63,018 nt of DNA, from NCBI GenBank assembly GCA_040880005.1, contig JBBDJG010000035.1:1-63018 (forward strand), read 5' to 3'. Shown piece after piece: positions 45,548-63,018 of this stretch. Below the pieces are notes generated by a model. That model saw only the letters and a list, made by a program, of their open reading frames with translations. It was not told the origin of the DNA and did not search any database. Each line of letters opens with the position of its first letter. Positions within the stretch are counted from its first letter, which is position 1. A program made the position numbers and the translations under genes. The stretch is from Solirubrobacterales bacterium (GTDB lineage: Bacteria > Actinomycetota > Thermoleophilia > Solirubrobacterales > JBBDJG01).

Positions 45548-45973
45548 CTAGCCATCGCGGACCCGATCATTTGCAAAGAGCGCAACGAGCGCCTGATGCA
45601 CCACAAGGCCAGCACCAAGACATGCGAGGACTGCTGCGATGCGCCAAGCAGGCGTGTCAATGGCATAGGAGAACGGTATCGCAGCTACCAGCGTTACCAA
45701 TCCCCCGTAGTAGAAGACCCTCGCCGTCAATGGTGCAGGAGGTTTGGGGGGAAACCGCCAGCTCCATAAGTCGGCACGCGACAATAGCCCGGTAGTTAGC
45801 AAGAGGCAAACGGCCGTGCCAGCGCCAACAAGTTCCGGACTATCTGACAAAGTAGCCAGGACTATCGGGGTTAGAGCCACTACGCCCAGGCCACCAATAC
45901 ACAGCATCAGATCCCGGTGCGATGTATGGCCCTGCCCTCCACGGCGTCCAAGCTGAGCTTGGCGCTGAGTCAT
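45548..45973 (-). CDS. Putative Rhs immunity protein, ~4 TM
   Basis: 141 aa; ATGA overlap with the Rhs stop; visibly lower GC; four hydrophobic segments. Confidence 0.65.
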   Translation of the reverse strand: MTQRQAQLGRRGGQGHTSHRDLMLCIGGLGVVALTPIVLATLSDSPELVGAGTAVCLLLTTGLLSRADLWSWRFPPKPPAPLTARVFYYGGLVTLVAAIPFSYAIDTPAWRIAAVLACLGAGLVVHQALVALFANDRVRDG

Positions 45974-48900
45974 CGCGGGGGCCCTGTTGCGGCAACTACG
46001 CATCCCCAGGCTGACGCCGCTATTCCGTACGGATTTCTTGCCATGATCGAAAGGGCCATTGGAACTCCCGCGACATAAGCACACCTTCTCACTGGCGCCT
46101 TGGCATCCTCTGGGAGCGACTGGTAGGCGGTCAACCCGACCGCCAAGGCAGGTCCCGCGACCGGGATCGGACCGAGAATTGCATAGTTCCTTACTGCTCG
46201 CTTTGCTACTTGACCCACCTTCTTCGCAATCTTCCTGGCACTGAGTCCCGAGGCGCCTGCGCGTCGCCGTCTATCTACCCTCCGCAGGTAGCGCCGCACA
46301 TCGCGCCTTGCCCATCTCGCGGCCCCTTGGCACCATGCCTGTGTCTGCCCGCAACCCGTAGTCCGGCTCGTGACTCGTTTCTTCTTGCGAGATTTCGAAC
46401 CGTCCAGATCAAACGAGTTCACCGGGTCCTGACCCGCGTAGTCGTAGGCGTTGTCCGACCCGCCAGGAACGGGGTCGGTTTGTAGGAAGCGACCCATCTG
46501 CGGCACATACACCCGTGCGCCCATCGTGATCGCGCCTGAGGCGAACTGGGTCTGGCGCTCCTTGCCTCCCAGCCAGCCGTAGCGGGTATCGGTCGGCGGC
46601 GCCAGTGGCTCTTCGGGGCGGGGTACGCCGAACTCGTCTGACTCGAAGGTGTCGAGGATCGTTGCGGTCACCGAGGCGATCGCGATCACGTCGCCGTGCA
46701 GGTTCGTGAGCTGGAACTTGACGCCGTCCTGGGAGTCCTGGATCGCGCCGAGGTCGCCTCCGATCCCGCCGATCATGCGCTGCCACTCGTTGTTGCCGGA
46801 ATCGGTCCAGCTCGGCGAGTCGGAGTCGTCTGAGTAGTGCATCGTCTCGTCGGGCTTGCCGGTCGATTGCTTGATCCGCGGGCGGCGGTTGGGGTCGAGC
46901 GTAAACGTCTGCGTCTTGCCGGCCTGGGTGAGGCTTCGCACGAGGTCGTTGGTGTAGTAGGTGGCGCTCAGCTGGTCGCCTCCTGCGGCAGTTGCCGGTG
47001 TGGTCGTGATGCGGCCGAACGCATCGTATTGGAAGCCGGCGTCGGTGATGCGGTCGGCCGCATCGTAGGTGTGGTCGATCGCCTGGCCCTCCCCGGCGGT
47101 CTGGCACTGGGCGTTGGGGCCGCGGGATACTTGGCGCGTTCTGTTGGAGTCGGCGTCGAAGGAGTAGGTGCGGGTCGTGCAGCCCTGACCCGACGGCGTG
47201 TCGGCGACCAAGCTCAGCCGGCCGGCGGCGTCGTAGGTGTAGGACTGGCTCGACAAGGAGCTGTCGTGTGTGCGCCACTGGCCGTGGATCGACTCGGTCA
47301 CGCCCTCGTCGAGCTGGGTGCCGGTTCCCGCAGCGCCGCACTGGCCGGAGCCGGTCATGTAGCAAAGGCGCGTGGGGCTGCCGGACTCGTCGTAGAACGT
47401 GCGGGCGGTGAGGCCGTTGGGCAGCGTCTCGGTCAGCTGGTTGCCGTCGGCGTCGTAGGTGGCGGCGAAGGTGCCGGCCGCGAAGTCGGTGAGTCCCGTG
47501 ACCAGCCCCGTAACGGGGTCGTAGGAGTAGGTCTGGGTGTCCTTGCCGTCGTTGACGGTCTTTGGTCGGCCGAGAAGGTCGTAGGTGGTCTGCGACGTGG
47601 TGCCGTCGGCGTCAGTGTAGTGGGTCTGCCTGCCAAGCGAGTCGTACTGGCGCGTGATCGTCTGCTCGTTGCCCGTTTGGACGAAGATGCGCGTGGTGGT
47701 TGGACGACCGGTATTCGGGTCGTAGTCGGTCTGGACCTGATCGAGCGAGGTGCCCTGCGTGCCCGAGACCGACTGGGTACGCGGCCGCCCGGCAGCGTCG
47801 TAGGCGGAGATCGCTACCTTCTGATCGTTGCCGACCTGATCGGTTGCTCTTGTGGGCTGATAGAGGCTGTTGTACTCGGTGGTCGTTTGCGGCAGGTTGG
47901 GCACACCGGGCGTGTTCGGCTGTGCTTCGGGTAGCGACTTGCACGGAAGCCAACGCCACTCCGCGTGACCCATGCAGCCGGCAAGCTGGCTGAACGGATC
48001 TGCGTTGTAGTAGACGGTTCTCATGGTGTTCACATCGCCACCGGGCCCCGGAGTCCGGCTCCACATGACGAGACCATTGCCGTAGTAGCGAACGTCAGAA
48101 CGCAAGTTGAGGCCCTCCGGATCGACCGTTGTCGAGGTCGGCTGGCGCAGCGTCAGACCGAGGTCCCCCTGGTCCTGGTACGAGGTCTTGGTCACGCGCA
48201 CGTCGCGGTCGCTCGCCTCGCCCGGGATACGCGCCCCCGCCGTCTGCTTGGTCGGCAGGTGATAGCGCTCGCCGGTCGGCGTTCGGGGCAGGGCGCTGCC
48301 GTCGGGAGCCTTGTCGTACTCGGTCGTGGAGTGAGCGCGGGCCTGCACGAGCTGACCATTATCGAGCTTCACCTGATGCAGCGGCCCAAGCGTCTCCAGC
48401 AGGTCAACGCCGTCCGGGGTGTAGGTGTTCTGGGTGTCGAGCTGCTGCGCCGTAACCGCCGAACTGCTGCCCGTGGCGAGCGCCCGCAGGCGGTTGGTCG
48501 CCCCCAGCGTTCGCTTGACGTTGTCGAAGCCGTCGTACTCGGCGGTGGTGATCGCTGCGCCGGGGGAGGCGACGTTGACCTCGCGTCCCAGGCGATCGAG
48601 ATAGTGGATCGTCGCCTTCGAGTACTGGCCCGCGCTCGCGTCGGGCGGGAGGATCGCGATCGCGTCGGTGGGCACGGCCTGCTGGGCCCAGTCGTCCACG
48701 GCGCCCGGGCTCATGTCGTAGGGGGCGCCGGAGCCCGAGACCGCGACGTTGTAGTCCATCGTCCAGGTCGAAGTGCCCTGCGAGCACAGGCAGGCGCGGC
48801 TCACGCTCGCGAGACGGCCCGTGTTCGGATCGCCGCCGGCAGCCGCGTGGTTGATCGTGAAAGGCTCTTCGCCCGCGGGCGTGACCTGCGTGATGTGCCC

Positions 48901-51900
48901 GGCGGAGTCGTAGGAGTACCTCGCCTTCAAGGGCGGCGTAATGCGACCGTCCCAGGCCTCGATCAGGCGATCGTTCTCATATGAATACTGCGCGACCGTC
49001 CTCCAACCCGCGTACGAGTAGAACTCGATGCTGCCGATCTGAGCCGTCGTGTTGTAGTTGAACCTCAGGAAGCGACACTTGACCGCGGGTGATGCGTCCG
49101 GGCACTCGGACGCCGAGGATCCCGCGGCGTACGCGCGGTCGATCTTGTACTTGCCATCGACCAGCCCGTAGCCGTAGGTGATCGTGTCGGCGGAGCCGGG
49201 TGGCTGAATCGCGGTCACGGGATAGACATTGGTCGCGTCCTGGCTCGTGAACACCGTCGTCACGTTCTCCAGGTCAGTTACCTTGAACTGGTTGGGGCTC
49301 GGGCGCTTCAGCAACAGGTCCTCGCTGCCCTCCTCCGGCTGCCATTCTCCCTCCAGGTTCAGAAAGGAGAATTTCGTGCCGTCGGATGCGGTTATCGTCG
49401 CCTGTTCGTACCGCTCGGAGACGGTTACCGGATCGCCGTACTCGTCCTCGTACGTGTCCGTGAAGGTCTTCCAGCCAGTTTCGAGCCTGGAGTAGCTGCT
49501 GTTCATAGCGTCCGACGGAAGGCTTGCGGTCCAGCCGAACCCGAGCGCCCCGCCATGATCGTTCTCCCTCGTCAGTTGCCCATCGCCCCCGCCGTTCGGG
49601 TCGCGCGAGTTGTAGGTGCGGGAGAAGTTGAGATCGGCGTTGTAGGCATCGATCGACACGTCGTCGGCCGACATCGAGAAGTTGCCGGTCAGCAGATCGA
49701 CCGAGCCGGGGCCGATCGACTCGACCGCGTCCTTGGTGGCGGGCGCCTTGCGATCGAGCGTGAAGCGGATCGCGTCGCTGGTGTAGGAACCGCCCCCGCC
49801 GCCCGTGAACAGGGCGCGCACATACACCGGGCCGTCGTAGCCGGTCAGACCGGTGGTCGTCGCTGCGTCCCACACGAGCGTCGGGCTCAGTCCGCCGGAC
49901 AGGCCGACGGGGCTTGCGACCGACTGGTTGAGGTCGTTCTTGAGCTGGCCGGCAGGCACCGGCGACCACTGGCCCTCGGTCCCGGTCTTGCTGAACCAGA
50001 GCGCGATCTTGTCGAAGCCGGCGGCCTGCGCCTTGGCGCGCACCGTGATGCGGCGGCGCGTGCGCGTGCCGTCGTCGGGCTGGGTCAGCAAGCCGGGGTT
50101 GTCGAGGCGCGCCAGGCCCGCCTGGGCAGCGCCGCCAACCGCCGTGAAGTCGCCGCCGACCAGCAGCCGTTCGCGATCGGCGTCGAGATCGCGGATCGCA
50201 ACCGGGGATCCCGTCGCGGACACGTTCGGCGCAAGAGGGAACGCGAGCCCCGACTGGGGATCGAGTCCGGCAAGTCCGTTCCGCTGAACTCCCGCGATCT
50301 GCGAGAAGCGTCCGCCGACGAACACGCCGGCCGGGTCGGCGTCGATCGCATCGACCGGGCCGTCGGGGCTCGGGTTCCACGAGGTGACCGTCTGCCCCTG
50401 CAGCGAGGCAAGCCCCGCGCGGGTCGCGCCTGCGATCGATGTGAAGCTCCCGCCCACGTACAGCGTATTCCCGCTGAGCGCCATAGAGGTCACCGCACCG
50501 TTGCACGGCGGTGTCCAGGCCCCGCCGCCGGTCACGGTAGTCACAGACCATAGCTCTCTGATGTCCTGGCTCGGCTCACCGTTCTTGTTGAAGTGGCCCG
50601 CCAAGTACACGGTATCGGCGCTAGCCTCAATCGCGTTGACCTGTCCGACAAGTTCGCTCGACAAACCCGGAGTCCAGGAGAGCAAGTCTCCAGTATCGAT
50701 GCTGAACGCACCGGCGTTCGAGCTACTGACACCGCCGTGACTGAGACTTGCGCTGCCTACATAGATCCTTCCGACCGCGGACGCGAGCGCTCGCACCTCG
50801 CTCGCCTGCGGGCTCCAATCGACCAGTCCGCCGGTGTCCTGCATGAACGCCGCGAGGTTCTGCCGGGTGCTGCCGGCGATGCTCGAGAACGCACCACCCA
50901 CATACAGCTTGCCCTCGGCTAGCTCGATCGCGTTGACTCTGCCGTTGGGGTCTGGGCTCCAGCCGGTCGGCACACCGGTCGTGTCGCTCAGCTCGGCAAG
51001 GTTGTGTCGTTCGACAACGTTGGCCGCCCGGAAACGCCCGCCGGCAAATACGCGTCCACCGTACAAACCGATCGTCTTGACCGAGTTGCCGAGGTTCGGG
51101 TTCCAACTCGTCGCGCCGGCGCTGCTCAAGTCGAGCGCGGCGATCTTGCCGCGAGCCTGCCCGCCGATCGTCGTGAAGTCGCCGCCTGCATAGACCGTGG
51201 CGCCCGACACGGTGATCGAACGCACGCGCGCACCCGAGGGCGCACTCGGATTCCACGACTGCGGGGCGCCGCTTGCCGCATCGAGTGCAGCGATCCCGTT
51301 GCGAGTCGCGCCGCCGACCTGCGAGAACGCGCCGCCCGCGTAGATCCGCGTGCCGGACGCAACGAGCGCGTCCACCGACCCGTTCGAGTTCGGGTTCCAC
51401 GGGGCCGCCTGGCCGAAGGTCGAATCCACCTGGGCGATGTTGCTGCGCGGCTGGCCGCCGACGCTCGTAAACGTCCCGCCCAGGTACACCGACCCAAGCG
51501 ACGTGGCAATCGCCGAGATCGATCCGCTTTCAGGACCCACGTTGGGGTTCCAGCTTGTAGCTGTCGCGAGCGTCTTGTCGAGTTCGGCAACTCGCCGCCG
51601 CTGCTGGCCGCCGATGTAGTCGAAGTCTCCTCCCACATAGAGTTTGCTTTCATCCAGAGCAATCGCCCTGACGAGCCGCGGGTAGGGATATGGAGCCCAG
51701 CCACCCACGGCTGCGTTGGTCGGATTGAGCTTCGCGAGCCCGTTGCGGGTCACTCCGCCAACGTGCGTGAACGATCCCCCCACGTACAGATCCTGCCCGT
51801 CGTTCGCCAGCGCATACACCGAGCCTCCGCTCGCCCCCGGGTCCCAGGCCGGATCGACCGTGCCGTCGGCCCGGATGTGGGCGAGGTTGGCGCGCGGATA

Positions 51901-53025
51901 ACCGCCGACGCTGGTGAACTCCCCGCCGATGAACCAGCCTCCCAGTCCGTCGGGCGCGCTCGCGCGCACCTCCACTGCGGGCGATCCCGAGGAATCCGAG
52001 CCGGCTACCTCTGGGTAGGCGAGGTCGGGCAAGCCGCCGGTCTGTGCGAGCGACGTGAACGCGCCCACGCGGGTGCCGACCGAGTCGAAGTCGCCGCCGA
52101 CATAAACCTTGTCCTCGCCGTGGAGCGCGATCGCGTTGATCTTCGGCACCGGGCCGCTGCCGCCGTCGGGAACCTGGGTCGGCACCGGCGTCGACGAGTA
52201 GCGTCCGCGCGGCGGGTCGCAGGAGTTCGGGCCCGGCGGAACCAGCGTGCGGATGATCGAAGCGTAGGAGTTGTCCACGTACACGTCGATCGGTGCATGC
52301 TGCTCCATCGCGTCCGTGTACAGGCCGAAGCTGGCCCGCGTGCCGTACTGCCCGTAGTTGTTGGGTGCGCTCGAATCGACCACCTTCTCACCGTTGAGGT
52401 ACACCTCGTTGATCGCGTGCTCCGGGTCGCCGGCAGGCTTGTCGGAGAACTTCTGGCGCACCATCAGCCAGTTCCAGCAGCCCTCCTTGAGCGCGAAGGG
52501 GGATCCGATCGCATCAGCGGAGTCGTTGAACGTGTCGTTTGAGTGGCCGCGCACCAGCCGCGCCTTGCGGTCGCCCTCGAAGACGGCGATGCCGCCGTAG
52601 TGATCCACTCCCGCGCTCGCCGCGTCCCAGCGCAGAATGTCGAAGCGATGGCGCTGCTTGGGACCGGCGCCCGTGGTCGTACCCGGCGGAAGGTAGAAGG
52701 CAGCGCCGTAGGAGGCGTCGGCCAGGCCCGAGGCCCAGTTGTAGGAGCCCATGGCGGCGCGACCGAGCGATGTGTTGCCGTTGTAGGAGGCCTTGGCGTA
52801 GGCGCTTCCGTCGTAGGCAGACGGCGGGCCGGTGGAGCGCGTGAAGCCGAAGAACTGGTCCTGCCTGATCGAGTCGTACTGGGAGGAGATGTCGGCCGGC
52901 TCGTGGGTAGCGGTGCGCCCGCAGGCGCCGAGGCCGAGCGCGGCCGCGAGGACCAGCACCGCCGCCAGCGTGTGCCCACCGAGGCGCTTCGGGGACCGAC
53001 CGGACATCTGCCTCACCATCGCCAA
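45970..53025 (-). CDS. Lipoprotein Rhs/YD-repeat polymorphic toxin with propeller repeats
   Basis: LGAC lipobox; 14 YVGGxF repeats; GSVDLLTGNF (DUF6531-like); YD repeats; RVYVPQMGRFLQTDP...YAGQDPVNSFDLDG core end; GGAGGGAGG SD. Confidence 0.93.
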   Translation of the reverse strand: MAMVRQMSGRSPKRLGGHTLAAVLVLAAALGLGACGRTATHEPADISSQYDSIRQDQFFGFTRSTGPPSAYDGSAYAKASYNGNTSLGRAAMGSYNWASGLADASYGAAFYLPPGTTTGAGPKQRHRFDILRWDAASAGVDHYGGIAVFEGDRKARLVRGHSNDTFNDSADAIGSPFALKEGCWNWLMVRQKFSDKPAGDPEHAINEVYLNGEKVVDSSAPNNYGQYGTRASFGLYTDAMEQHAPIDVYVDNSYASIIRTLVPPGPNSCDPPRGRYSSTPVPTQVPDGGSGPVPKINAIALHGEDKVYVGGDFDSVGTRVGAFTSLAQTGGLPDLAYPEVAGSDSSGSPAVEVRASAPDGLGGWFIGGEFTSVGGYPRANLAHIRADGTVDPAWDPGASGGSVYALANDGQDLYVGGSFTHVGGVTRNGLAKLNPTNAAVGGWAPYPYPRLVRAIALDESKLYVGGDFDYIGGQQRRRVAELDKTLATATSWNPNVGPESGSISAIATSLGSVYLGGTFTSVGGQPRSNIAQVDSTFGQAAPWNPNSNGSVDALVASGTRIYAGGAFSQVGGATRNGIAALDAASGAPQSWNPSAPSGARVRSITVSGATVYAGGDFTTIGGQARGKIAALDLSSAGATSWNPNLGNSVKTIGLYGGRVFAGGRFRAANVVERHNLAELSDTTGVPTGWSPDPNGRVNAIELAEGKLYVGGAFSSIAGSTRQNLAAFMQDTGGLVDWSPQASEVRALASAVGRIYVGSASLSHGGVSSSNAGAFSIDTGDLLSWTPGLSSELVGQVNAIEASADTVYLAGHFNKNGEPSQDIRELWSVTTVTGGGAWTPPCNGAVTSMALSGNTLYVGGSFTSIAGATRAGLASLQGQTVTSWNPSPDGPVDAIDADPAGVFVGGRFSQIAGVQRNGLAGLDPQSGLAFPLAPNVSATGSPVAIRDLDADRERLLVGGDFTAVGGAAQAGLARLDNPGLLTQPDDGTRTRRRITVRAKAQAAGFDKIALWFSKTGTEGQWSPVPAGQLKNDLNQSVASPVGLSGGLSPTLVWDAATTTGLTGYDGPVYVRALFTGGGGGSYTSDAIRFTLDRKAPATKDAVESIGPGSVDLLTGNFSMSADDVSIDAYNADLNFSRTYNSRDPNGGGDGQLTRENDHGGALGFGWTASLPSDAMNSSYSRLETGWKTFTDTYEDEYGDPVTVSERYEQATITASDGTKFSFLNLEGEWQPEEGSEDLLLKRPSPNQFKVTDLENVTTVFTSQDATNVYPVTAIQPPGSADTITYGYGLVDGKYKIDRAYAAGSSASECPDASPAVKCRFLRFNYNTTAQIGSIEFYSYAGWRTVAQYSYENDRLIEAWDGRITPPLKARYSYDSAGHITQVTPAGEEPFTINHAAAGGDPNTGRLASVSRACLCSQGTSTWTMDYNVAVSGSGAPYDMSPGAVDDWAQQAVPTDAIAILPPDASAGQYSKATIHYLDRLGREVNVASPGAAITTAEYDGFDNVKRTLGATNRLRALATGSSSAVTAQQLDTQNTYTPDGVDLLETLGPLHQVKLDNGQLVQARAHSTTEYDKAPDGSALPRTPTGERYHLPTKQTAGARIPGEASDRDVRVTKTSYQDQGDLGLTLRQPTSTTVDPEGLNLRSDVRYYGNGLVMWSRTPGPGGDVNTMRTVYYNADPFSQLAGCMGHAEWRWLPCKSLPEAQPNTPGVPNLPQTTTEYNSLYQPTRATDQVGNDQKVAISAYDAAGRPRTQSVSGTQGTSLDQVQTDYDPNTGRPTTTRIFVQTGNEQTITRQYDSLGRQTHYTDADGTTSQTTYDLLGRPKTVNDGKDTQTYSYDPVTGLVTGLTDFAAGTFAATYDADGNQLTETLPNGLTARTFYDESGSPTRLCYMTGSGQCGAAGTGTQLDEGVTESIHGQWRTHDSSLSSQSYTYDAAGRLSLVADTPSGQGCTTRTYSFDADSNRTRQVSRGPNAQCQTAGEGQAIDHTYDAADRITDAGFQYDAFGRITTTPATAAGGDQLSATYYTNDLVRSLTQAGKTQTFTLDPNRRPRIKQSTGKPDETMHYSDDSDSPSWTDSGNNEWQRMIGGIGGDLGAIQDSQDGVKFQLTNLHGDVIAIASVTATILDTFESDEFGVPRPEEPLAPPTDTRYGWLGGKERQTQFASGAITMGARVYVPQMGRFLQTDPVPGGSDNAYDYAGQDPVNSFDLDGSKSRKKKRVTSRTTGCGQTQAWCQGAARWARRDVRRYLRRVDRRRRAGASGLSARKIAKKVGQVAKRAVRNYAILGPIPVAGPALAVGLTAYQSLPEDAKAPVRRCAYVAGVPMALSIMARNPYGIAASAWGCVVAATGPPR

Positions 53026-54559: not shown

Positions 54560-55351
54560 TTGGCCGCCGCCCTGACAGTCATCGCGATAGTCGTCTTCTT
54601 CGGCGTGATCCTGCTGGCCAGCTCGGTCCGCGTGCTGCGCGAGTACGAGCGCGGCGTGATCTTTCGGCTCGGCCGCCTGATCGCGCAGAAGGGACCGGGG
54701 CTGATCTTCCTGATCCCGATCATCGACCGCATGGTCAAGGTCGAGTTGCGCACGGTGACGCTCAACATCCCTCCGCAGGAGGTGATCACGCGCGACAACG
54801 TTCCGGTGCGAGTGAACGCCGTCGCCTACTTCCGCGTGATCGACCCCAACGCGGCGATCGTGCAGGTCGAGAACTTCCTCGTCGCGACGTCGCAGATCGC
54901 GCAGACGACACTGCGCGCAATCCTCGGCCGGGCGGAGCTGGACGGCCTGCTGGCCGAGCGCGAGCGCCTCAACGAGGAGCTCCAGCAGGTGATCGACGAG
55001 CAGACCGAGCCGTGGGGCATCAAGGTCACGACGGTCGAGATCAAGGACGTCGAGATTCCCTCCGACATGCAGCGCGCGATGGCCCGCCAGGCCGAGGCCG
55101 AGCGCGAGCGCCGCGCAAAGATCATCGCCGCCGAGGGCGAGTTCCAAGCCTCCGACAAGCTCTCCCAGGCTGCCTCCGTGATCGGCAAGGAGCCGATCGC
55201 TCTCCAGCTCCGCTTCCTTCAGACGTTGCTGGAGATCGGCGCCGAGAACAACTCGACCACGATCTTCCCGGTGCCGATCGAGCTGTTCCGCCCGATCATC
55301 GAGGCCCAGATAATGAAGGAGAAAGCCGGCGGCGGCTCCTCCTCCTCCTGA
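54560..55351 (+). CDS. Stomatin/slipin (SPFH) family protein
   Basis: [48 protein letters not shown]. Confidence 0.95.
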
Positions 55352-55352
55352 G

Positions 55353-56336
55353 CTGCGCATCGACCCCCTGACGGGGTTGAGGGTCGTGCTGGCGCCGCAG
55401 CGCGCGGACCGGCCACTGAATTTCGAGCCTTCGGTCGCGCACGACGACGCGCGCGCGCAGTGCCCGCTCGACGAGGGTCGCGAAGACCAGACACCGCCCG
55501 AGGTGTGGGCGCTGCGTCCCGGCGGCGGCGCGGCCGACACGCCGCGCAGGCTGGTGCGCGCGGTGCCGAACAAGTACCCGGTGCTGGTGGCCGAAGCGGG
55601 CGGGCTGAGCGACCCGCTCGGCAGCGGCCGTGGCGACCCGGACCTGTTCGCGTCGGGCGTCGCGACCGGAGCGCACGAGGTGATCGCGCACTCGCCCGAG
55701 CACGTGGTGTCGCTGGGCGCGCTCGGAGCGGACCAGCTCGAACACGTGACCGCCGCGTGGGCGGCGCGGCTGGCCGCGCATGCCGACGCCGCCTATGTGC
55801 ACGTGATGGTCAACGAGGGAGCTGCCGGCGGCGCATCGCTCGAGCACTCGCACACGCAGGTGTACGCGCTCGACTTCGTGCCGGCCTCGATCGCGCGCGA
55901 GCGCGAGCGCTTCACCGCACACAACACGCGCACGACGGGCGGCTGCCTGCTGTGTGACCTGCTTCAGGAAGAGGTGAAGCGGCGCGAGCGTGTCGTTGCC
56001 GTTGACGACTTCGGCGTGTTGACGGCGCCGTTCGCGTCGCGCTCGCCGTACGAGCTGAGGATCGTGCCGCGCGAGCACGCGGCGGGGTTCGGCGAGGGTG
56101 GCGAAGCGGTGGCGCCTTTGCTCGACGAGGCGGTGCGTCTGTTGACGCAGCAGCTCGGCTCCCCGCCGCCGTTGAACCTGTGGCTGCGAACCGCGCCGCG
56201 GGGTGCGGAGCACTTCCATTGGCACATCGACGTCTTGCCGCGGCTGACCGTGCTGGCCGGCTTCGAGCTGGGCACCGGCGTGAGCATCAACATCGTGCCA
56301 CCCGAGCGGGCGGCGGAGGAGCTGCGGGAGGGCTAG
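55353..56336 (+). CDS. galT: Galactose-1-phosphate uridylyltransferase (GalT/HIT) family
   Basis: [52 protein letters not shown]; start unclear (CTG 55353 or TTG 55377). Confidence 0.85.
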   Translation: MRIDPLTGLRVVLAPQRADRPLNFEPSVAHDDARAQCPLDEGREDQTPPEVWALRPGGGAADTPRRLVRAVPNKYPVLVAEAGGLSDPLGSGRGDPDLFASGVATGAHEVIAHSPEHVVSLGALGADQLEHVTAAWAARLAAHADAAYVHVMVNEGAAGGASLEHSHTQVYALDFVPASIARERERFTAHNTRTTGGCLLCDLLQEEVKRRERVVAVDDFGVLTAPFASRSPYELRIVPREHAAGFGEGGEAVAPLLDEAVRLLTQQLGSPPPLNLWLRTAPRGAEHFHWHIDVLPRLTVLAGFELGTGVSINIVPPERAAEELREG

Positions 56337-56366
56337 AGGCGGTCGGCGGGTCGGCCCGAGGCCGGC

Positions 56367-57983
56367 TCAGTGAACGGCGGACTCGTCCGGGGTACGCCCG
56401 ACAAGGCGGGCGGCGAAGCTGCGTCGCGGAGCGCTGCCGTTACCGGCTGCAGCGGCGACCAGCTCCTCTTCTTCCTCGACTGCGATCTCTTCGTCGGATT
56501 GCCCGGGAGCCGGGAAGGAGTAGTCGTCGATGCGCTTCTGGAGGTTCAGCTCGGCGTCGAAGTCGGCGTCCTCGCCGTGGCGGTAGCGGACGTCCTTGCC
56601 GGCCAGCACGCGGATGAAGATCTCGACGTACTCGGCGTCGAGCTGCTCGCCGGAGACGCGCTTCAGCTCCTGGATCGCCTCGAACGAGGAGACCGGCTCG
56701 CGGTAGGAGTCGCGCGCAGTCATCACGTCGTAGGTGTCGGCGACCGAGATCATGCGCGAGAGCTTGGGTATCTCGTCGCCCTCGAGGCCGCGCGGATAGC
56801 CCTCGCCGTTGATGCGCTCGTGGTGCGCGAGGATGATCTCGCCGACGGGGCCGTAACCCTCGACGTCGGAGACGATCTTCGCGCCCTGGTAGGGGTGCAT
56901 GCGGATCGTGTTCCAGTCGTCCTCGGTAAGCGGCGCGCCACCCTTGAGAATCGAGTCGGGGAAGATGAACTTGCCGATGTCGTGCAGCAGCCCGGCCGTG
57001 TGAACGAGGTCCTGCTCCTCTTTGGTACACCCAGCCTCGACCGCGATCTCGCGCGCGTAGCGCGCGACGGCGGCACAGTGCCGCGCCGTCATCTTGTCCC
57101 GCAGGTCGAGCGTGTGCATGAGGGCGGAGAGCACGCCGACTTGGAGGGACGCGAGCTGGCGTGTGCGGCCGTGGAGTTGTTTGGTGCGGGTTTCGAGCTT
57201 CTCGGCACGCTCCTCCGAGAGGAGAAGTTGGCCAAGAAGAATCTGAAACGAGATCAGGACGATTGCGCAAAGACCAACAGCTGGCAAGCCAACGCGATAG
57301 TAGAAGTAAGCAATTCCCAGAACCAGTAGTGCGGAAAAGAGCTCAGAGGCCAAGACAGGAGGAATCGCACGCTTTGCTACGACGATCGGAGACTTGCGCT
57401 CGACATATCCGGTGTAAGACATCATCATCGCTATGTTGCAAGCGAGGGCCACACACAACGCCACGAAGGCCACGAGATAGAAGGATCCGTCCGAAGGAAC
57501 TACGTTCATGGTCTTCGACATGGCGAAGAACGAGATGCCGCCAATGAGCGGGAACCACGCGAACGTCACGCCGTTGATAAGCAACTCGCGTAGCGGGTAC
57601 CGCTCGGGGAGCCAGCCCACCAACACCGCGGACACGCCAACGATTGCGGCTGGCGTTCCGCCGAGAAAGAGCATCGCCAAAACTAGCGCCAGGAAGCTCC
57701 CGGATACGACCAGGTGGGTTGAACCCCTGGCCTTGACTGCAACACCTTCGCTTACTGCTGCAAAGACAACGAGAAGCCCCAGGAGAGACATATCCCAGGT
57801 TGCGTCGGGACCCACGGCGGTCGCAAGTGCGACTGCCGCGAGCAACGCGAACCACTCCAATGCGATAACCCATGGGCCGGGTCGGCTTTGCAGGACGAGA
57901 CCTCCCGAATCAAGTCGATTGCCGGAACTATCGACCGAAAATGCGACTTTCTTTAGGAGTTTTGTAACGATCATTGCTGACAC
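56367..57983 (-). CDS. Membrane-sensor HD-GYP cyclic-dinucleotide phosphodiesterase (intact motifs)
   Basis: ~8 TM N-terminus; D..TARH, LLHDIGK, IRMHP..G, HHERINGEGYP.GL, SVADTYDVMT..SYR; start uncertain. Confidence 0.9.
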   Translation of the reverse strand: MSAMIVTKLLKKVAFSVDSSGNRLDSGGLVLQSRPGPWVIALEWFALLAAVALATAVGPDATWDMSLLGLLVVFAAVSEGVAVKARGSTHLVVSGSFLALVLAMLFLGGTPAAIVGVSAVLVGWLPERYPLRELLINGVTFAWFPLIGGISFFAMSKTMNVVPSDGSFYLVAFVALCVALACNIAMMMSYTGYVERKSPIVVAKRAIPPVLASELFSALLVLGIAYFYYRVGLPAVGLCAIVLISFQILLGQLLLSEERAEKLETRTKQLHGRTRQLASLQVGVLSALMHTLDLRDKMTARHCAAVARYAREIAVEAGCTKEEQDLVHTAGLLHDIGKFIFPDSILKGGAPLTEDDWNTIRMHPYQGAKIVSDVEGYGPVGEIILAHHERINGEGYPRGLEGDEIPKLSRMISVADTYDVMTARDSYREPVSSFEAIQELKRVSGEQLDAEYVEIFIRVLAGKDVRYRHGEDADFDAELNLQKRIDDYSFPAPGQSDEEIAVEEEEELVAAAAGNGSAPRRSFAARLVGRTPDESAVH

Positions 57984-58012
57984 CGGTCAAGATTTTTCGC
58001 TCAACGGCAAGG

Positions 58013-58040
58013 AAAAGGGCGCTCCCGAACGAAAGCGCCC
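58013..58040 (-). terminator. Intrinsic terminator/attenuator upstream of the HD-GYP gene
   Basis: GGGCGCT-TTCGTTCGGG-AGCGCCC followed by TTTT on the minus strand. Confidence 0.7.
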
Positions 58041-58048
58041 TCCCAAGC

Positions 58049-58131
58049 TCAGTAAGAAAGTTGATCTTTCATCCCGCCCCGAGAATCATCGGCGGAACAA
58101 TTTCTGCCTGCTATCGACGCGAGTAAGCCAT
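58049..58131 (-). other. SD-led mini-ORF or degenerate small-peptide gene
   Basis: GGAGGTG-7 nt-ATG: MAYSRR*QAEIVPPMILGAG* then, shifted, MKDQLSY*, ending just before the terminator. Confidence 0.4.
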
Positions 58132-58338
58132 TTGCAAACACCTCCAGACGACAAGCTGCCCCGTAGCCTGGACGAATGTTGGAGTCCAAGCTCACTTTCC
58201 GCTGCATATGAGGCCATACCACGTATGGCCGGTCAATTTGCCGGCCTTGGACTGCAAGGTTCGATGCAAAGCTAAAGTCTGCCATCGCCTTGCCGAAAGC
58301 GCCTTTTCTTGCCCAATCCTCATGAAGAGCGGACATTC

Positions 58339-59613
58339 ATGCGTCAGGCAATAGCTCCTCTCCGACTGCCAGGATTTCGGCCGCTCGCCCTCGGCTACAC
58401 AGTCAATGAGCTGGGTAACTGGCTTGGTGACGTTGCGCTTGCGATCTTGGTTTTCAACCACACTGGGAGCCCGCTGGCGACCGCTGGACTCTTCCTCGCC
58501 ATGCAGTTCTTGCCGGCACTCACCAGCCAATTCGTGGTCGTCAGAGGTGAGATGGCAGGCGCGAAACGGGCGCTCCCGACCATTTACGCCGCTGAAGCGG
58601 CCGTCCTCCTATTGCTGGCCCTTCTTGCTGAGAACTTCAGCTTGGCAGGCATCATTGTCCTTGCGGCGCTTGATGGGACACTTGCGATCGCAGCACGAGT
58701 TCTCCTGAGAGCAACAAGCGCCACGGTCCTAGAGCCGGTAGGCCTGCTCAGAGAAGGCAACGCGATAATTAACGTTGCATTTACTACCGCAAGCATGATC
58801 GGACCCGTGGTCGCGGGACTGGTCGTGACGGTATACGGCACAACGACGGCACTCTTGCTCGATGCGGGCTCGTTTCTCGCCGTGTCCCTGATACTGCTGA
58901 TTGCAAGATCCGTCCCGGACCTTAGAAACCGCCAAGCGAACTGGAGGAAAGAACTTCGAGCCGGGATTCGATACGTATGGGAACGCTCAACCCTTAGACG
59001 ATTGATCTGGGCCAACGCCGCGATAGTGCTCTTTTTGACCGCTGCCGTCCCGATCGAGATCGTATTGGTCAAGGAATCGCTCGGCTCTGGTGACGCTGGA
59101 TACGGAGTCCTGCTCGCGGCATGGGGAACTGGAATGATTTTGGGTGGTCTGCTCTTCGTCGCGGCGAGGCAGGTGTCACTTCAAGTACTTCTCATCGCGA
59201 GTGCAACTCTAGTCGGTTGCTCATACATCGGAATGGGAATGGCACCAAGCCTCAGCATTGCGCTCGTTGCTTCTATGGCTGGGGGTGTCGGCAATGGCGT
59301 CCTGTGGGTCGCAACCGTGAGCGCGATACAGGCCATAACGGCTCGCGAATTCCAGGCACGAGTCATGGGAGTACTCGAGCTAACTGCCTCTGCTTCACCG
59401 GGACTCGGGTTTCCTTTGGGCGGGTTGCTCGCGTACCTTTTCTCACCCCGAACGAGTTTCGTGGTGAGTGGGATCGGGGCACTCATCGTCGTACTCGTGG
59501 CCAGTTTCATCCTCAGGAACAGCGTGTGGGCGGATAGTGAACCCAGCGATGACGTGTCCGACGTGGAGAGTCTGGTTGCACTGGAGCCGATCAGCCTTCC
59601 TAATCGGCCCTGA
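58339..59613 (+). CDS. MFS transporter (DHA3/macrolide-efflux-like)
   Basis: FRPLALG...LGNWL..VAL, GSPLA, ~12 TM, FQARVMG. Confidence 0.9.
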   Translation: MRQAIAPLRLPGFRPLALGYTVNELGNWLGDVALAILVFNHTGSPLATAGLFLAMQFLPALTSQFVVVRGEMAGAKRALPTIYAAEAAVLLLLALLAENFSLAGIIVLAALDGTLAIAARVLLRATSATVLEPVGLLREGNAIINVAFTTASMIGPVVAGLVVTVYGTTTALLLDAGSFLAVSLILLIARSVPDLRNRQANWRKELRAGIRYVWERSTLRRLIWANAAIVLFLTAAVPIEIVLVKESLGSGDAGYGVLLAAWGTGMILGGLLFVAARQVSLQVLLIASATLVGCSYIGMGMAPSLSIALVASMAGGVGNGVLWVATVSAIQAITAREFQARVMGVLELTASASPGLGFPLGGLLAYLFSPRTSFVVSGIGALIVVLVASFILRNSVWADSEPSDDVSDVESLVALEPISLPNRP

Positions 59614-59735
59614 GGCGGTCCCCCCACCTTACGTCGGCTGACTTCCGTCCTTCCACACGACTGACCAAGTGGTCAGTTCCGAAAAGCAGCAAGGCTCTCT
59701 TGCTTCAACCCTAAGTGTCGGCTTATATTGGGCAT

Positions 59736-60974
59736 GTGGACTCGCGGCATTCACGACCGCCTCTTTGGCTTCTTCCCAATCGCACTGAGCAGCTACCGGC
59801 GCTGGGAACCCGTAGGCCGAGACTCGCAGCCGCTGTAAGCATTGCGATGCTCGCGGTGCTTGGTGCCGTGCTGTTCCTGTTCGCGCCTTCGTCACATTGG
59901 TCCCCTCAGGTAGTGTTCGCTGTTCTGCTGGTCGCGGGTTCGCTTTCCTACAGCGGTTCGATGCCACTGCGTGGTAGCGAAGCAGCTATCGACGCCGGCG
60001 CGTGCGTTTCCGCTTTGGCACTCGTCTTCCTTGGGCCGCTGCCGGCGCTCTGTGTGATCTGGATCCCAGACGCGATGATGATTCTCTCTGGCAAGAGGCT
60101 CGTCACAAGCTTGGCGAACCTTCTCGACGGTCTCGCATCCGTGCTCGTCGGCTGCCTCATTCTCGTCGCATTCGGTTTAACGGCGCCGCTCCAATTCGAC
60201 AATCCCGCCGCGTACCTCGCCTTGCTCTTGGTCTGTCTCGGCTACGTGGCTGTTACCTACTTTCCTGGGATCGTGATCGTCGATGTGCTGAGCGATGGCC
60301 TTGCTTTCTGGCCCGTTGTGCGTCGCGACTTTCCCAACACGATCCTCACCGAAATCGCCATGTGCGGCGCGACAGTTCTGATCGCGTTCGCCTATTGGAA
60401 GGTAGGAATCGTTGGGCTGCTGTTGGTGGTGGGGCTCGTGATGCTTCCCCGACTGCTGATTCCCTTGATGTGGCGCTCGAAGCCGATCGCGGAGCTCGAG
60501 CTCACCGATGCGACCGCTGTGTACGCAGAGTCTCTCGGTGGCGTGCTTGCCTTGGATCGATCGAGGGCAAGAGTCCTCGGCGATGCGGCGACACATCTCG
60601 GGGGACGGGCTGCGGTGTCGAACGTCGACGACTTTCAAGACGTGATGCACATCGTCTTGTACTGCCGGGAGGATTGGGATGGCGAAGATGGATTCCCCGG
60701 CGTGCTCTCGGGCAAGGACATCCCAATCGAGAGTCGCGTCCTGCGAGTGGCGGAAGCGTGGGCGAGCCTCACTGCCAGAGGCACGGCTGTGCTGGCGCCC
60801 GAGCACGCCTTGGGCGAGTTGATGGCGCAAGCCGGCAAGGAGTTCGACCCGGAGGTGGTGGCTGCGGCCAGGCAGATCGTCCAAGACGACCTGCTTCCGG
60901 TGCCATCGTCCACAGCGCGCGAACAGGCTCTAGCGAAGCGCAGCCACAAGACGGCGCCGCGCCCCGCAATTTGA
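59736..60974 (+). CDS. Membrane sensor with degenerate, truncated HD-GYP domain
   Basis: ~8 TM; C-terminal YCREDWDGEDGFPGVLSGKDIPIESRVLRVAEAW...GKEFDPEVV; no HD or HHE motif. Confidence 0.8.
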   Translation: MDSRHSRPPLWLLPNRTEQLPALGTRRPRLAAAVSIAMLAVLGAVLFLFAPSSHWSPQVVFAVLLVAGSLSYSGSMPLRGSEAAIDAGACVSALALVFLGPLPALCVIWIPDAMMILSGKRLVTSLANLLDGLASVLVGCLILVAFGLTAPLQFDNPAAYLALLLVCLGYVAVTYFPGIVIVDVLSDGLAFWPVVRRDFPNTILTEIAMCGATVLIAFAYWKVGIVGLLLVVGLVMLPRLLIPLMWRSKPIAELELTDATAVYAESLGGVLALDRSRARVLGDAATHLGGRAAVSNVDDFQDVMHIVLYCREDWDGEDGFPGVLSGKDIPIESRVLRVAEAWASLTARGTAVLAPEHALGELMAQAGKEFDPEVVAAARQIVQDDLLPVPSSTAREQALAKRSHKTAPRPAI

Positions 60975-60977
60975 GGC

Positions 60978-62214
60978 ATGGCCGTCTCGACTGAAAAGCG
61001 CGCACCGCTGTGGCTTCTTCCGCGAGAAACGAAGCCGCTGCCGGAGGTTAGGAGGCGGCGGCCGCGAGTGGCGATTGCGATCAATCTCGTTCTGATCGCC
61101 GCCGCCGTGCCGATGTTTCTGTACGTCCTTCCGACGACGCACTGGCAACCCCAGGCGCTGGCCACACTGCTGATCTGCGCAGGAATGCTCAGCATGACAA
61201 GGCCCCTCCACACCACGTCAACCACCTCGATCGACGCGGCGGTGGCAGTGTCGTTCGTGGCCATACTCCTGCTGGGCCCGCTCGTCGGCCTTGCGGTGTT
61301 GATTGCAAGCGAGGCAGTCTGGGCACTCCGCGTGTACACGCGCAGCAGTGTGCTGATCAACGCCGTTGCAAACACAGCCAACCACTGCTGGCTGTGCATG
61401 GTTTTCTCGCTTGTAATGGTGGCCGGCGATTTCCAGCCGCCCGACTCTCTGGCGAGCATGAACGTCCTACTGTTGGCGCTTGGCGCCGGGCTCGCAGCCT
61501 GCGCCACCAACATTTTGCTGCTCGGGATTACCTGCAAGACCTGGGATGGAGTCCCCTTCCGCCACGCCATTCTGTTGGACGGGCATCCAGGCAACCTTGA
61601 TCGATACGGCGTCGATCCTCTGCGGAATCGCCATCGCACTCCTCTATCAGCAAGTCGGCCTGGTCGCACTGGTAGCGCTGGTGGGATTGATCCTCTTACC
61701 GCAGCTTCTTATTTGGCGAATCATCCGGCCCGGATCAATCAACGAGTTGAGCCTTGAGGAGGCAACTCGAACCTACGCAATGATGTTGGCCGACTTGCTC
61801 GACCTTGAAGCCGACCAGAGAAGGGTGCTCGCCAGCGCGGCCCGCCAACTCGATGGTGGCAAACCGACTCTTCAAAGAGTCAACGATTTCCAACCAGTTA
61901 TGCAGGCCGTGCTTTACGCCCGCGAGCGCTGGGATGGCGAAGAGGGCGGTTTCCCGGGCGTGCTGAGTGGCGAGCAGATCCCAATCGAAAGCCGCGTGCT
62001 CGCCGTGGCGCACGAATGGAGCTCGCTCACAGCCCAAGGTACCCGCGAGCTAGAGCCCGAGGTGGCGCTCGCCGAATTGCGATCACGCGCGGGCGCGGAT
62101 TTTGATCCGCACGTGGTAGCCGCGGCCGCTCAGGCAGTCGAACAGGGGTTGGTGCCGGTCGACCCCAGCAAGCCGATCAGGCTCCGCCCTGAACCGGCTC
62201 TACGAACCAGTTAG
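60978..62214 (+). pseudogene. Paralogous membrane sensor with degenerate HD-GYP domain, frameshifted near 61581
   Basis: Frames 60978.. and ..62214 join as GVPFRHAILLD-GIQATLIDT if one G of GGG (61581-61583) is removed; YARERWDGEEGGFPGVLSGEQIPIESRVL. Confidence 0.75.
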
Positions 62215-62217
62215 TTC

Positions 62218-62847
62218 CTACCCCTTCACCATCCGCTCGAAGCCGCTCCAGACGAAGGCGGTCAGCAGGTCCACCAGCTCGGAGCGCTTTGCCTTGGGGT
62301 TGTTGCGCCACCAGGCGGCGAGCGCTTCGGCGCCGCCGGCGATGATCTCGGCGAGCTGCTCGAGCTGGCGGCGCTTGAGCCCCGCCTTCGACGCGCGCGG
62401 GTCGAGTGCCAGCAACTCGGCCAGCGTCTGCACCGCGCGGGCTCGTAGCTCGCCCTGGTACTCCACGATCTCGAGGTCGCTCGCCTGCTGCGTGAGCGTA
62501 GGCCACGCGTTGCTGCCGTCGGCGATGAACGCGATGAACGCGTCGAGGCCGCGCTCCAACCGCTCCGCCACCGGCGGCCCGGGCGCGGAGGCCTCCGCGA
62601 GCTTCTCCTGAAGAGCATCCGACGCGCGCTCCATCACCGCCATGTAGAGGTCGGCCTTGGTGTCGAAGTGCTGGTAGATCAGCGCCTCGGAGATGTCGCA
62701 GGACTTGGCCAGGTCCTGAGTCTTCAGCCCGTCGTAGCCGCGCGCGGCGAACTCGATCGAGGCCGTCGTGAGGATCCGTTCCCTCCGTGCATCGCGCGGA
62801 ATGCGCCGTTTGATCGGCTTTTCGCGCTTACCTGCTGCTTTGGGCAA
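62218..62847 (-). CDS. TetR/AcrR family transcriptional regulator
   Basis: RRERIL..A..EFAARGY.......LA....ISEALIYQHF.TKADLY; GAGAGG SD before TTG. Confidence 0.92.
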   Translation of the reverse strand: MPKAAGKREKPIKRRIPRDARRERILTTASIEFAARGYDGLKTQDLAKSCDISEALIYQHFDTKADLYMAVMERASDALQEKLAEASAPGPPVAERLERGLDAFIAFIADGSNAWPTLTQQASDLEIVEYQGELRARAVQTLAELLALDPRASKAGLKRRQLEQLAEIIAGGAEALAAWWRNNPKAKRSELVDLLTAFVWSGFERMVKG

Positions 62848-62904
62848 TTTCGCCGCCTCTCATCGGCTCAAAGGGACTCCAGACCAAGCCCATCTTAGCC
62901 CCAC

Positions 62905-62934
62905 TTGACATATAAGAGGCCACTAACTTAGTAT
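62905..62934 (+). promoter_or_regulatory. Sigma70-type promoter divergent from tetR, with small palindrome
   Basis: TTGACA-18 nt-TAGTAT; ACTAA-C-TTAGT inverted repeat overlaps the -10. Confidence 0.6.
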
Positions 62935-63018
62935 TACGGCCGGACGTCGCCGTACAGGCATGGCGGCCTCGTCCAGGGCAAGGAGACCTCCAGACCACTC
63001 CGGGCGACCCGTGCTTGC

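Follow-up and report, generated by a model that had tools for sequence, protein, structure and literature searches.

Organization of the locus

The stretch of DNA analysed here (the window) comprises 63,018 nucleotides (nt) of contig JBBDJG010000035.1 of a Solirubrobacterales bacterium (assembly GCA_040880005.1), and the subject of this report is a gene cluster at positions 56367 to 62214 which may constitute a peptide signalling system. According to the list of open reading frames (ORFs) and Pfam, a membrane-bound HD-GYP enzyme is encoded on the minus strand and, divergently on the plus strand, a transporter of the major facilitator superfamily (MFS) followed by two catalytically dead paralogues of the enzyme; a mini-ORF of six codons, led by a Shine-Dalgarno (SD) sequence, lies between the divergent genes. 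This layout, the MFS gene beside the sensors (matches to Pfam MFS_1 and MFS_3) and the SD-led mini-ORF ahead of the active enzyme (MAYSRR, with a hairpin and a T run behind it) had been proposed in an original prediction made from the nucleotide letters, and were confirmed. The features are as follows.

56367..57893, minus strand: active enzyme (508 aa) with MASE9-like sensor, eight membrane helices, coiled coil and complete HD-GYP domain (Pfam HD_5, HD)
57928..57955, minus strand: WhiG/sigma-28-like promoter motif TAAAG-N15-GTCGATAG, 35 nt 5' of the CTG start (putative function, assigned by motif)
58011..58040, minus strand: terminator-like hairpin and T run between mini-gene and enzyme gene (10-bp stem, -17.1 kcal/mol, TTTTCC tail)
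58111..58145, minus strand: mini-gene, with SD GGAGGTG (58145-58139) and ORF MAYSRR (58131-58111); homologues at the same place in relatives
58339..59613, plus strand: MFS transporter, H+ antiporter/EntS-like (Pfam MFS_1, MFS_3); from its sequence and setting the likely peptide carrier
59715..60974, plus strand: intact dead paralogue, sensor domain and truncated HD-GYP domain without metal ligands (419 aa, start approximate)
60978..62214, plus strand: second dead paralogue, a lineage-specific duplicate split into two ORFs by a one-base frameshift near 61570

The locus is flanked by nfeD, a band-7 gene, galT and tetR (Pfam, window proteins). Across positions 55000-63018 there were no Rfam matches at E <= 1, i.e., no known RNA family or riboswitch, and no sigma-70 site was found in the intergenic region. 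Matches of the MFS protein to the NCBIfam models 2A0121 and EntS were below the cut-off.

The mini-gene family and its linkage to sensor and transporter

MAYSRR belongs to a family of genes of five to six codons with the consensus M-G-[YFW]-R-x. Only a handful of 97 SD-led short ORFs in a scan of the genome had a strong hairpin downstream; that of MAYSRR has a clean 10-bp stem, and similar hairpins lie 3' of the family's other mini-genes. The sensor domain of the active enzyme was present in 118 of the 301 genomes sampled from the order, and 73 loci from 72 of these genomes, picked by rank and spread, were studied, 66 of them with HD-GYP output. Of these 66 loci, 42 carry an ORF that fits a strict pattern of SD, start codon, G/A, F/Y/W and 5-7 codons (8/18 in family f1, 26/30 in f4, 2/3 in f3 and 6/15 in f2), and 60 have an adjoining MFS gene, so that both are syntenic with the active gene elsewhere, as the original prediction implied. 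The number of mini-ORFs expected by chance at 66 loci is 0.3 when derived from the window's genome (7 other matches in 3.1 M strand-bases) and about 0.8 with 76 generic HD-GYP loci as the background, which gave 5 matches in 0.82 M.

The MFS gene is divergent from the active gene at 18/18 loci of the window's family. At the thresholds chosen, 100 of the 301 genomes contained both sensor and MFS, 18 the sensor only, nine the MFS only and 174 neither (50, 2, 0 and 37 in f4), a co-occurrence to be read as a pattern and not as a P value because the genomes are kin.

Among 99 copies of the mini-gene, 62 have five codons, 36 six and one seven. The start codon is ATG in 77, GTG in 19 and TTG in three, all three stop codons occur, and Arg4 is encoded by CGC, CGG, AGG, CGT and CGA (both CGN and AGR types), a variety which argues for selection at the level of the peptide. 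By the patterns used, residue 2 is Gly in 98 of the 99 copies; residue 5 is mostly non-aromatic (N, K or R). Readthrough of the mini-ORF's stop codon was discarded as a possibility, because the homologues end at the same place using three different stop codons. With respect to the enzyme gene, the mini-ORFs are found upstream, downstream on its own strand, or downstream in opposite orientation, where up to four copies stand in tandem.

A search for the mini-genes' promoter motif, which is of the extracytoplasmic function (ECF) type, was blind to the peptide and gave 21 matches in five genomes, 17 of which lead to five-codon ORFs. These ORFs are uniform per genome (MGYRH seven times in G016, MGYRN four times in G014, MGYRK three times in G009 and MGYRH three times in G004). 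Two of the remaining matches lie at the end of an ECF sigma factor gene, and two, in G005, have no such ORF within 140 nt. Among the mini-genes at large, exceptions to uniformity are one MGYRY copy in G016 and MGFRR beside MGYRR in G002. In the window's family the mini-genes are often multicopy, with mostly one peptide per genome that differs between species. The first patterns used demanded a terminal Arg, and with these most copies were missed and the rate outside the family was at control level. Under a stricter genome-wide pattern, matches were found in 48/112 sensor-positive versus 15/179 sensor-negative genomes, the latter being about the control level; within f4 the mini-gene pattern was found in 25/48 sensor-positive and 0/37 sensor-negative genomes.

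Several settings of the mini-genes were observed in passing. GGDEF-EAL proteins with the same sensor have a mini-ORF at 2/7 loci, and GGDEF-type proteins with this sensor at L264, L267 and L268 (f2) are preceded by MGYTGR, MGFKTGR and MGARNH. At the f4 loci L146-L162 the motif TGCACAAG occurs twice, followed by TGTGCTACAA, between the divergent MFS gene and the mini-gene; this repeat is conserved and likely an operator or promoter. A methyltransferase-like gene is inserted between mini-gene and HD-GYP gene at L060 and L061 (G003, G008), and another gene at L065 (G011). An operon of an ECF sigma gene, a gene for an 86-aa protein and one for a STAND cyclase-TPR protein, followed by tandem mini-genes, was seen at L388 and L390 (G014:C37, G004:C6); the sigma operon with mini-genes also occurs at L086, L088, L089, L323, L325, L331 and L359. 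A GGAAGA-N16-CGTCTG motif lies inside the last codons of the ECF sigma gene. The SD-led ORF MAWRR at G000:C26:41648-41665 (plus strand), between ffh and a sulfite-reductase-like gene, fits the pattern, has no clear terminator and is possibly a second copy or a chance match.

The active enzyme and its sensor domain

The active gene most likely starts at CTG 57891-57893 behind a strong SD sequence, the start given by the ORF finder being 57983. A CTG start was found in 15 of the 16 relatives examined (TTG in one), or at 16/17 loci with the window included, and this conserved start is missed by gene callers. The gene is single-copy in 18/18 genomes of the family, and G[CT]CGATA lies 31-40 nt upstream of the enzyme start at 17/17 family loci examined. 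The WhiG promoter consensus was taken from the accessible part of PMC8325347, and WhiG scores over the cut-off in the window's genome.

The motifs HDIGK, HHE and GYP are all present in the enzyme and, together with the Pfam matches to HD_5 and HD, bear out the earlier claim of one complete HD-GYP protein. When aligned with PmGH, the metal ligands H, HD, H, HH and D and the motif HHExh(D/N)GxGYP are present and invariant in 16/16 active proteins; Met at the position of the third-metal Glu indicates an HD-GYP domain of the bimetallic type. The messenger is probably cyclic di-GMP (c-di-GMP).

Regarding the sensor domain, a remote similarity points to a MASE9-like fold below the Pfam cut-off. No window protein matched MASE9 (PF20972) at the curated cut-off of 24.3 bits, and for two relatives the scores were 18.6 and 16.2 bits, also below it, with most of the model covered. 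The top matches in the Atlas were MASE9 clusters (0.94, 216/256 features, family on 22-54% of members), and the structural models have the eight membrane segments with an intramembrane hairpin that are a trait of MASE9. The model of the active protein (predicted local distance difference test score (pLDDT) 72, predicted template modelling score 0.45) matched HD-GYP structure 4mcw with Z 20.2 and S-components of energy-coupling factor transporters with Z 12.3-12.4; the dead-protein model had a pLDDT of 77. The membrane domain of the models matched S-components (5kbw with Z 12.0, root mean square deviation (rmsd) 3.3 and 160 aligned residues; 4m58 with Z 12.9), of which more than 10 entries ranked above unrelated membrane proteins. 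Foldseek alone gave no match at E <= 0.001.

The pocket of transporter S-components faces out. Here one extra helix stands between the S-component core and the cytoplasmic domain, and the loop charges alternate to match; with topology judged by alignment ranges and charge bias, the core is therefore predicted to be inverted relative to the transporters, and its pocket likely faces the cytoplasm. Acidic D/E49 and E184 are kept in 16/16 active proteins and are plausible candidate partners of the peptide Arg.

The catalytically dead paralogues

In both dead paralogues HHE is replaced by YCRE or YARE and GYP by GFP, the HD segment is gone, and the N-terminal motif PLWLLP is common to both, as had been noted. 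The original view that only the C-terminal half of the fold is kept needs correcting: the first two HD-GYP helices are retained, and what has gone is the coiled coil together with the HD motif and the stretch containing HxxxG. By hhalign (probability 99.9) the dead family is homologous to the active one over 355 columns, and the homology extends along the full length of the dead proteins. In 12/12 aligned dead proteins the HD and HxxxG segments are missing and both HHE and GYP are changed; the YR motif is altered as well. Without metal ligands, GYP tyrosine and YR guanine motif, a role as dinucleotide-binding effectors, one of those first considered, is unlikely. PLWLLP (window 59757-59820) and a C-terminal Pro/Leu/Arg tail (LHRLPLP in f2/f4) seem mutually exclusive among dead proteins (alignments A1/A2, L124-L131), and it would appear as if one element had moved between the ends.

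Only the first of the two paralogues (59715-60974) is intact; the second consists of two ORFs (60978-61757 and 61480-62214), and relatives carry at most one dead gene per locus. In two runs of one study (X1 and X2), both possible sources of the DNA, contigs show identical letters at the frameshift, which argues against an assembly slip, though the runs are not independent. In the tree the two copies are sisters (support 96/95) and represent an old lineage-specific duplication. The frameshift is probably recent, since the ratio of nonsynonymous to synonymous substitution rates (dN/dS) of the second copy is still 0.32-0.40, and this copy is probably a recent pseudogene.

The dead family was found in 28 of the 301 genomes of the order and in none of 322 genomes from the class's remaining orders, for each of which only 4 candidates were scored. 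By a simple pairwise Nei-Gojobori method, in which dS is distorted by GC bias, dN/dS of the dead genes was 0.25-0.48 (15 pairs), and 0.31-0.40 for the first window copy against relatives; for the active protein it was 0.16-0.46 in the sensor half and 0.04-0.39 in the catalytic half. The sequences indicate that the dead paralogues are under purifying selection. The idea of a maintained subfamily is thereby upheld by conserved homologues and by dN/dS, whereas the argument first offered for it, degeneration shared by the two copies of the window, is weak, because these stem from a lineage-specific duplication and one is broken.

The dead gene follows the MFS gene in 8 genomes of the family, including the window's. 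At 21 other loci it stands apart, and 18 of these 21 have an SD-led ORF of 5-7 codons within about 300 nt upstream (three do not); 11 of the 18 ORFs fit the strict pattern. In 10/10 genomes with both, the dead-locus peptide differs from the active-locus peptide (e.g., MGYRRG versus MGWRRG), the reference for G010 being its dispersed copies and not the active locus. G063 has a dead gene with its own MFS gene and peptide and no active sensor match. As unlinked dead genes mostly have a mini-gene of their own, the role that fits best, going by gene context, is that of a receptor for a peptide of its own. At L032 (G029:C101:3300-5500) a dead paralogue with mini-gene lies right after the end of an integrase-like gene and a tRNA-like stretch (by eye), a setting which suggests mobility. 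A complex prediction for active and dead protein (score 0.00, mark 0.32) was counted neither way. A contig scan with the dead protein gave one weak, irrelevant match; a metagenome scan gave four strong matches to the dead family, along with 76 HD-GYP loci, mostly generic, which served as the control.

Base composition and divergence

The GC content is 59.7% over 57201-62200, compared with 66.6 +/- 1.5%, and 0.07% of 5-kb windows are as low. GC at third codon positions (GC3) is 0.63-0.76 in the sensor half of the enzyme, the MFS gene and the first dead gene, 0.90 in the catalytic half and 0.90-0.94 in the flanks. The low GC noted originally is thus real for this locus but is not a property of the system, as the same genes at the same chromosomal place in up to 17 relatives have a GC3 of 0.83-0.96. 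The dS to relatives is 1.5-1.8 for the sensor half and 0.4-0.6 for the catalytic half (for instance 1.76 versus 0.64); in 5/6 other pairs there is little gap between the halves, and G010/G013 gave 0.76 versus 0.46. The fast-diverging low-GC block spans the sensor half, the peptide, the MFS gene and the dead sensors, with the catalytic half outside. By analogy, it covers the parts that would set specificity; the agr variable region likewise covers specificity-setting parts.

A divergent allele in run X2 differed at 52 of 432 bases in the sensor half and at 24 of 231 over the mini-gene region, where the peptide region of the strain contig carries two synonymous changes and a change of Tyr to Trp (single contigs of depth about 4, unphased, with two changes near a contig end). 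Horizontal arrival of the locus from afar was rejected, since the flanking genes are as in relatives and the dead genes branch inside the family (100/99). A replacement of alleles between family members is possible, and relaxed selection in a small, fast-evolving genome is an alternative.

Elsewhere in the window, a 2351-aa ORF (45970-53025, minus strand) is, judged by eye, rich in repeats toward its N terminus and of RHS/YD type toward its C terminus. No tRNA was detected in the window.

Proposed mechanism and alternatives

The gene trio, the codon-level conservation of the peptide, the mostly single peptide per genome and the metal ligands kept or lost, all read from sequence, and the model-predicted S-component-like fold and inverted topology are best combined in a leaderless peptide signal that would be moved by the MFS transporter and read by the membrane HD-GYP phosphodiesterase (probability about 0.57). 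The mini-gene, if translated as we infer, would yield the mature peptide of 5-6 residues directly, with neither leader nor processing site, and the peptide would probably lose its Met. The neighbouring MFS protein would carry it across the membrane, and its cytoplasmic level would rise only once kin or neighbours had filled the outside pool. The peptide would then bind the inward-facing sensor pocket from the cytoplasmic side, with its Arg on D49/E184, and its binding would likely tune the hydrolysis of a cyclic dinucleotide (probably c-di-GMP), the peptide serving as a density or kin signal particular to each species. WhiG feedback on genes for diguanylate cyclases and phosphodiesterases is described in the accessible parts of PMC8325347 and PMC12871210; the enzyme, lying behind a WhiG-like promoter, would feed back on the c-di-GMP/RsiG/WhiG switch and so close the loop. 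As to the dead paralogues, they most likely receive or absorb a second or foreign dialect of the peptide, acting via protein contact and not via nucleotide binding. The exported-signal or quorum-like circuit of the original prediction, with the mini-ORF as the likely signal judging by gene context, is well supported as a hypothesis because the dead homologues are conserved and the MFS gene and mini-ORF are syntenic; its dinucleotide-effector role for the dead proteins is the part that fell away.

Several observations weigh against this peptide-signal reading. The strict pattern was drawn from the first matches, most f4 and f2 loci being added later; in three genomes that have an inserted gene, the upstream search range was extended to 1.7 kb once their matches had been seen. 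No strict-pattern ORF lies near 24 of the 66 active loci, and 10 of the 18 genomes of the window's family have mini-genes (up to nine copies) only away from the locus. The counts are not independent, the genomes being kin, and uniform copies could stem from gene conversion. Most mini-genes of the family also follow the ECF sigma/STAND-TPR operon, a possible second receptor. The S-component Z scores of 11-13 are only moderate for helical bundles. Both guanine-recognition motifs, KPG and RxY[KR], are shifted relative to PmGH (Lys and Arg by one residue each), and Asp occupies the position of PmGH Arg314 in 16/16 active proteins; as the guanine motif is tied to c-di-GMP specificity in the part of the HD-GYP literature that was accessible, the substrate of the enzyme is uncertain.

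The same genes could also serve a gauge internal to the cell, in which the peptide binds the sensor and reports sigma-factor or translation activity, the MFS protein being a drain that sets its half-life. Such a gauge would suit a pocket predicted to face the cytoplasm, dispersed copies sharing one ECF-type promoter and a peptide without export signal, but it would have no need of species-specific peptides, of different peptides at dead loci or of the allele change between strains, all of which fit a kin signal, and it is considered unlikely. The probability is lower again that the peptide is the precursor of a ribosomally made and post-translationally altered peptide product (RiPP) of the biarylitide type, modified by an unlinked enzyme and exported as ligand or effector. 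It is as long as biarylitide precursors are, and MGYRH conforms to MxYxH (accessible part of PMC13417212), and the methyltransferase-like insertion beside the mini-gene was seen by eye in two genomes; yet no conserved modifying enzyme was noticed among the neighbours inspected by eye, the mostly N, K or R at residue 5 is not aromatic, and at most active loci there is nothing further between the genes.

In a very unlikely reading the mini-ORF acts in cis as a leader or belongs to a small RNA, with the peptide as by-product and the sensor reading another small molecule carried by the MFS protein. The mini-ORF does often precede the enzyme gene, a terminator lying between the two, and the transcripts have structured leaders. 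But mini-ORFs also occur downstream and on the opposite strand, as tandem copies and at a distance from any sensor, beyond the terminator the enzyme gene has a promoter motif of its own, and conservation is at the peptide level, with no Rfam match and a folding z of only -1.8. Hardly probable at all is a RopB-like arrangement in which the cytosolic STAND cyclase-TPR protein of the ECF sigma operon is the main receptor and the HD-GYP link is secondary. Tandem mini-genes stand behind that operon in most genomes of the family, with the promoter motif at the end of its sigma gene; against this, mini-genes found outside the family sit at sensor/MFS loci, the mini-gene pattern tracks the membrane sensor in f4, and the window's genome, which is 91% complete, did not yield the operon's sigma factor.

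If the peptide is indeed a signal read by the HD-GYP enzyme, the system may extend to a cell-to-cell language across the order, with unprocessed peptides of 4-6 residues, one dialect per species, a dedicated MFS transporter, inverted S-component sensors that gate a phosphodiesterase, dead paralogues that eavesdrop or absorb, and agr-like diversification of the block; this wider picture is tentative and is given slightly less than even odds.

Comparison with known systems

The following comparisons rest on the accessible parts of the sources cited. Like the leaderless communication peptides (LCPs) of the SIP-RopB type (PMC10518010), the ultrasmall ORFs here correspond to the mature peptide and have no secretion or cleavage signal, their codes differ between species, and the gene adjoins the receptor (a candidate receptor in the present case). 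LCPs are mostly of 8-10 hydrophobic residues, are read by cytosolic RRNPP transcription factors and occur in Firmicutes (PMC10518010), whereas the peptides described here are of 5-7 residues and basic, are often multicopy, are linked to an MFS gene and have a membrane phosphodiesterase as candidate receptor, in Actinomycetota. The ORFs of 5-7 codons are leaderless as in LCPs, and the neighbours are HD-GYP, MFS, TetR and GalT proteins instead of RopB/RRNPP. Biarylitide precursors (PMC13417212) are likewise 18-bp pentapeptide genes that escape annotation, and some copies here fit MxYxH; they are defined by a linked cross-linking P450 (PMC13417212), and residue 5 is usually non-aromatic in the present family. 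No P450 was found among the genes flanking the window's locus (Pfam) or by eye near other copies, unlinked P450 genes not being included in the search. The system does not conform to the definition of either the LCP or the biarylitide family.

The sensor resembles MASE9-HD-GYP proteins (bioRxiv 10.1101/2021.11.05.467447) in its eight membrane segments, its intramembrane hairpin and its occurrence on GGDEF-EAL proteins, and differs in lying below the Pfam cut-off, in the shifted guanine motifs and in the linked candidate ligand gene and transporter. As in Streptomyces HdgA/HdgB (PMC6205966), active and degenerate membrane HD-GYP proteins are encoded together in an actinomycete, a likeness by description; unlike HdgA/HdgB, for which the accessible part of that source mentions neither an MFS nor a peptide gene, the dead proteins here have internal deletions and a patchy distribution and are often unlinked, with a mini-gene of their own. 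The predicted sensor fold resembles S-components of energy-coupling factor transporters (RibU, ThiT, BioY, FolT, CbiM/NikM) with Z 11-13 and rmsd 3-4 A over about 160 residues, but is joined to a signalling domain, and its predicted orientation is the inverse, with the pocket opening inward.

Significance

No description of the mini-gene family or of the system was found in the literature searched (accessible in part, most subscription journals lying outside its coverage), and searches with the peptide strings gave only unrelated matches. The literature consulted, likewise accessible in part, names no ligand of MASE9-type sensors and contains no peptide signal feeding a membrane HD-GYP protein. 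The locus offers a candidate ligand for such sensors which is cheap to synthesise and whose natural cognate and non-cognate variants are built-in controls, so that the ligand question is directly testable. At 18-21 bp, the mini-genes are of the size of the smallest known genes and too small for annotation pipelines. The dead paralogues suggest a role for membrane pseudo-phosphodiesterases such as HdgB, namely as receptors for a second peptide. If the proposed mechanism is true, it would provide the first ligand class for MASE9-like sensors, encoded by peptide genes as small as any known, in an order of soil and sediment Actinomycetota.

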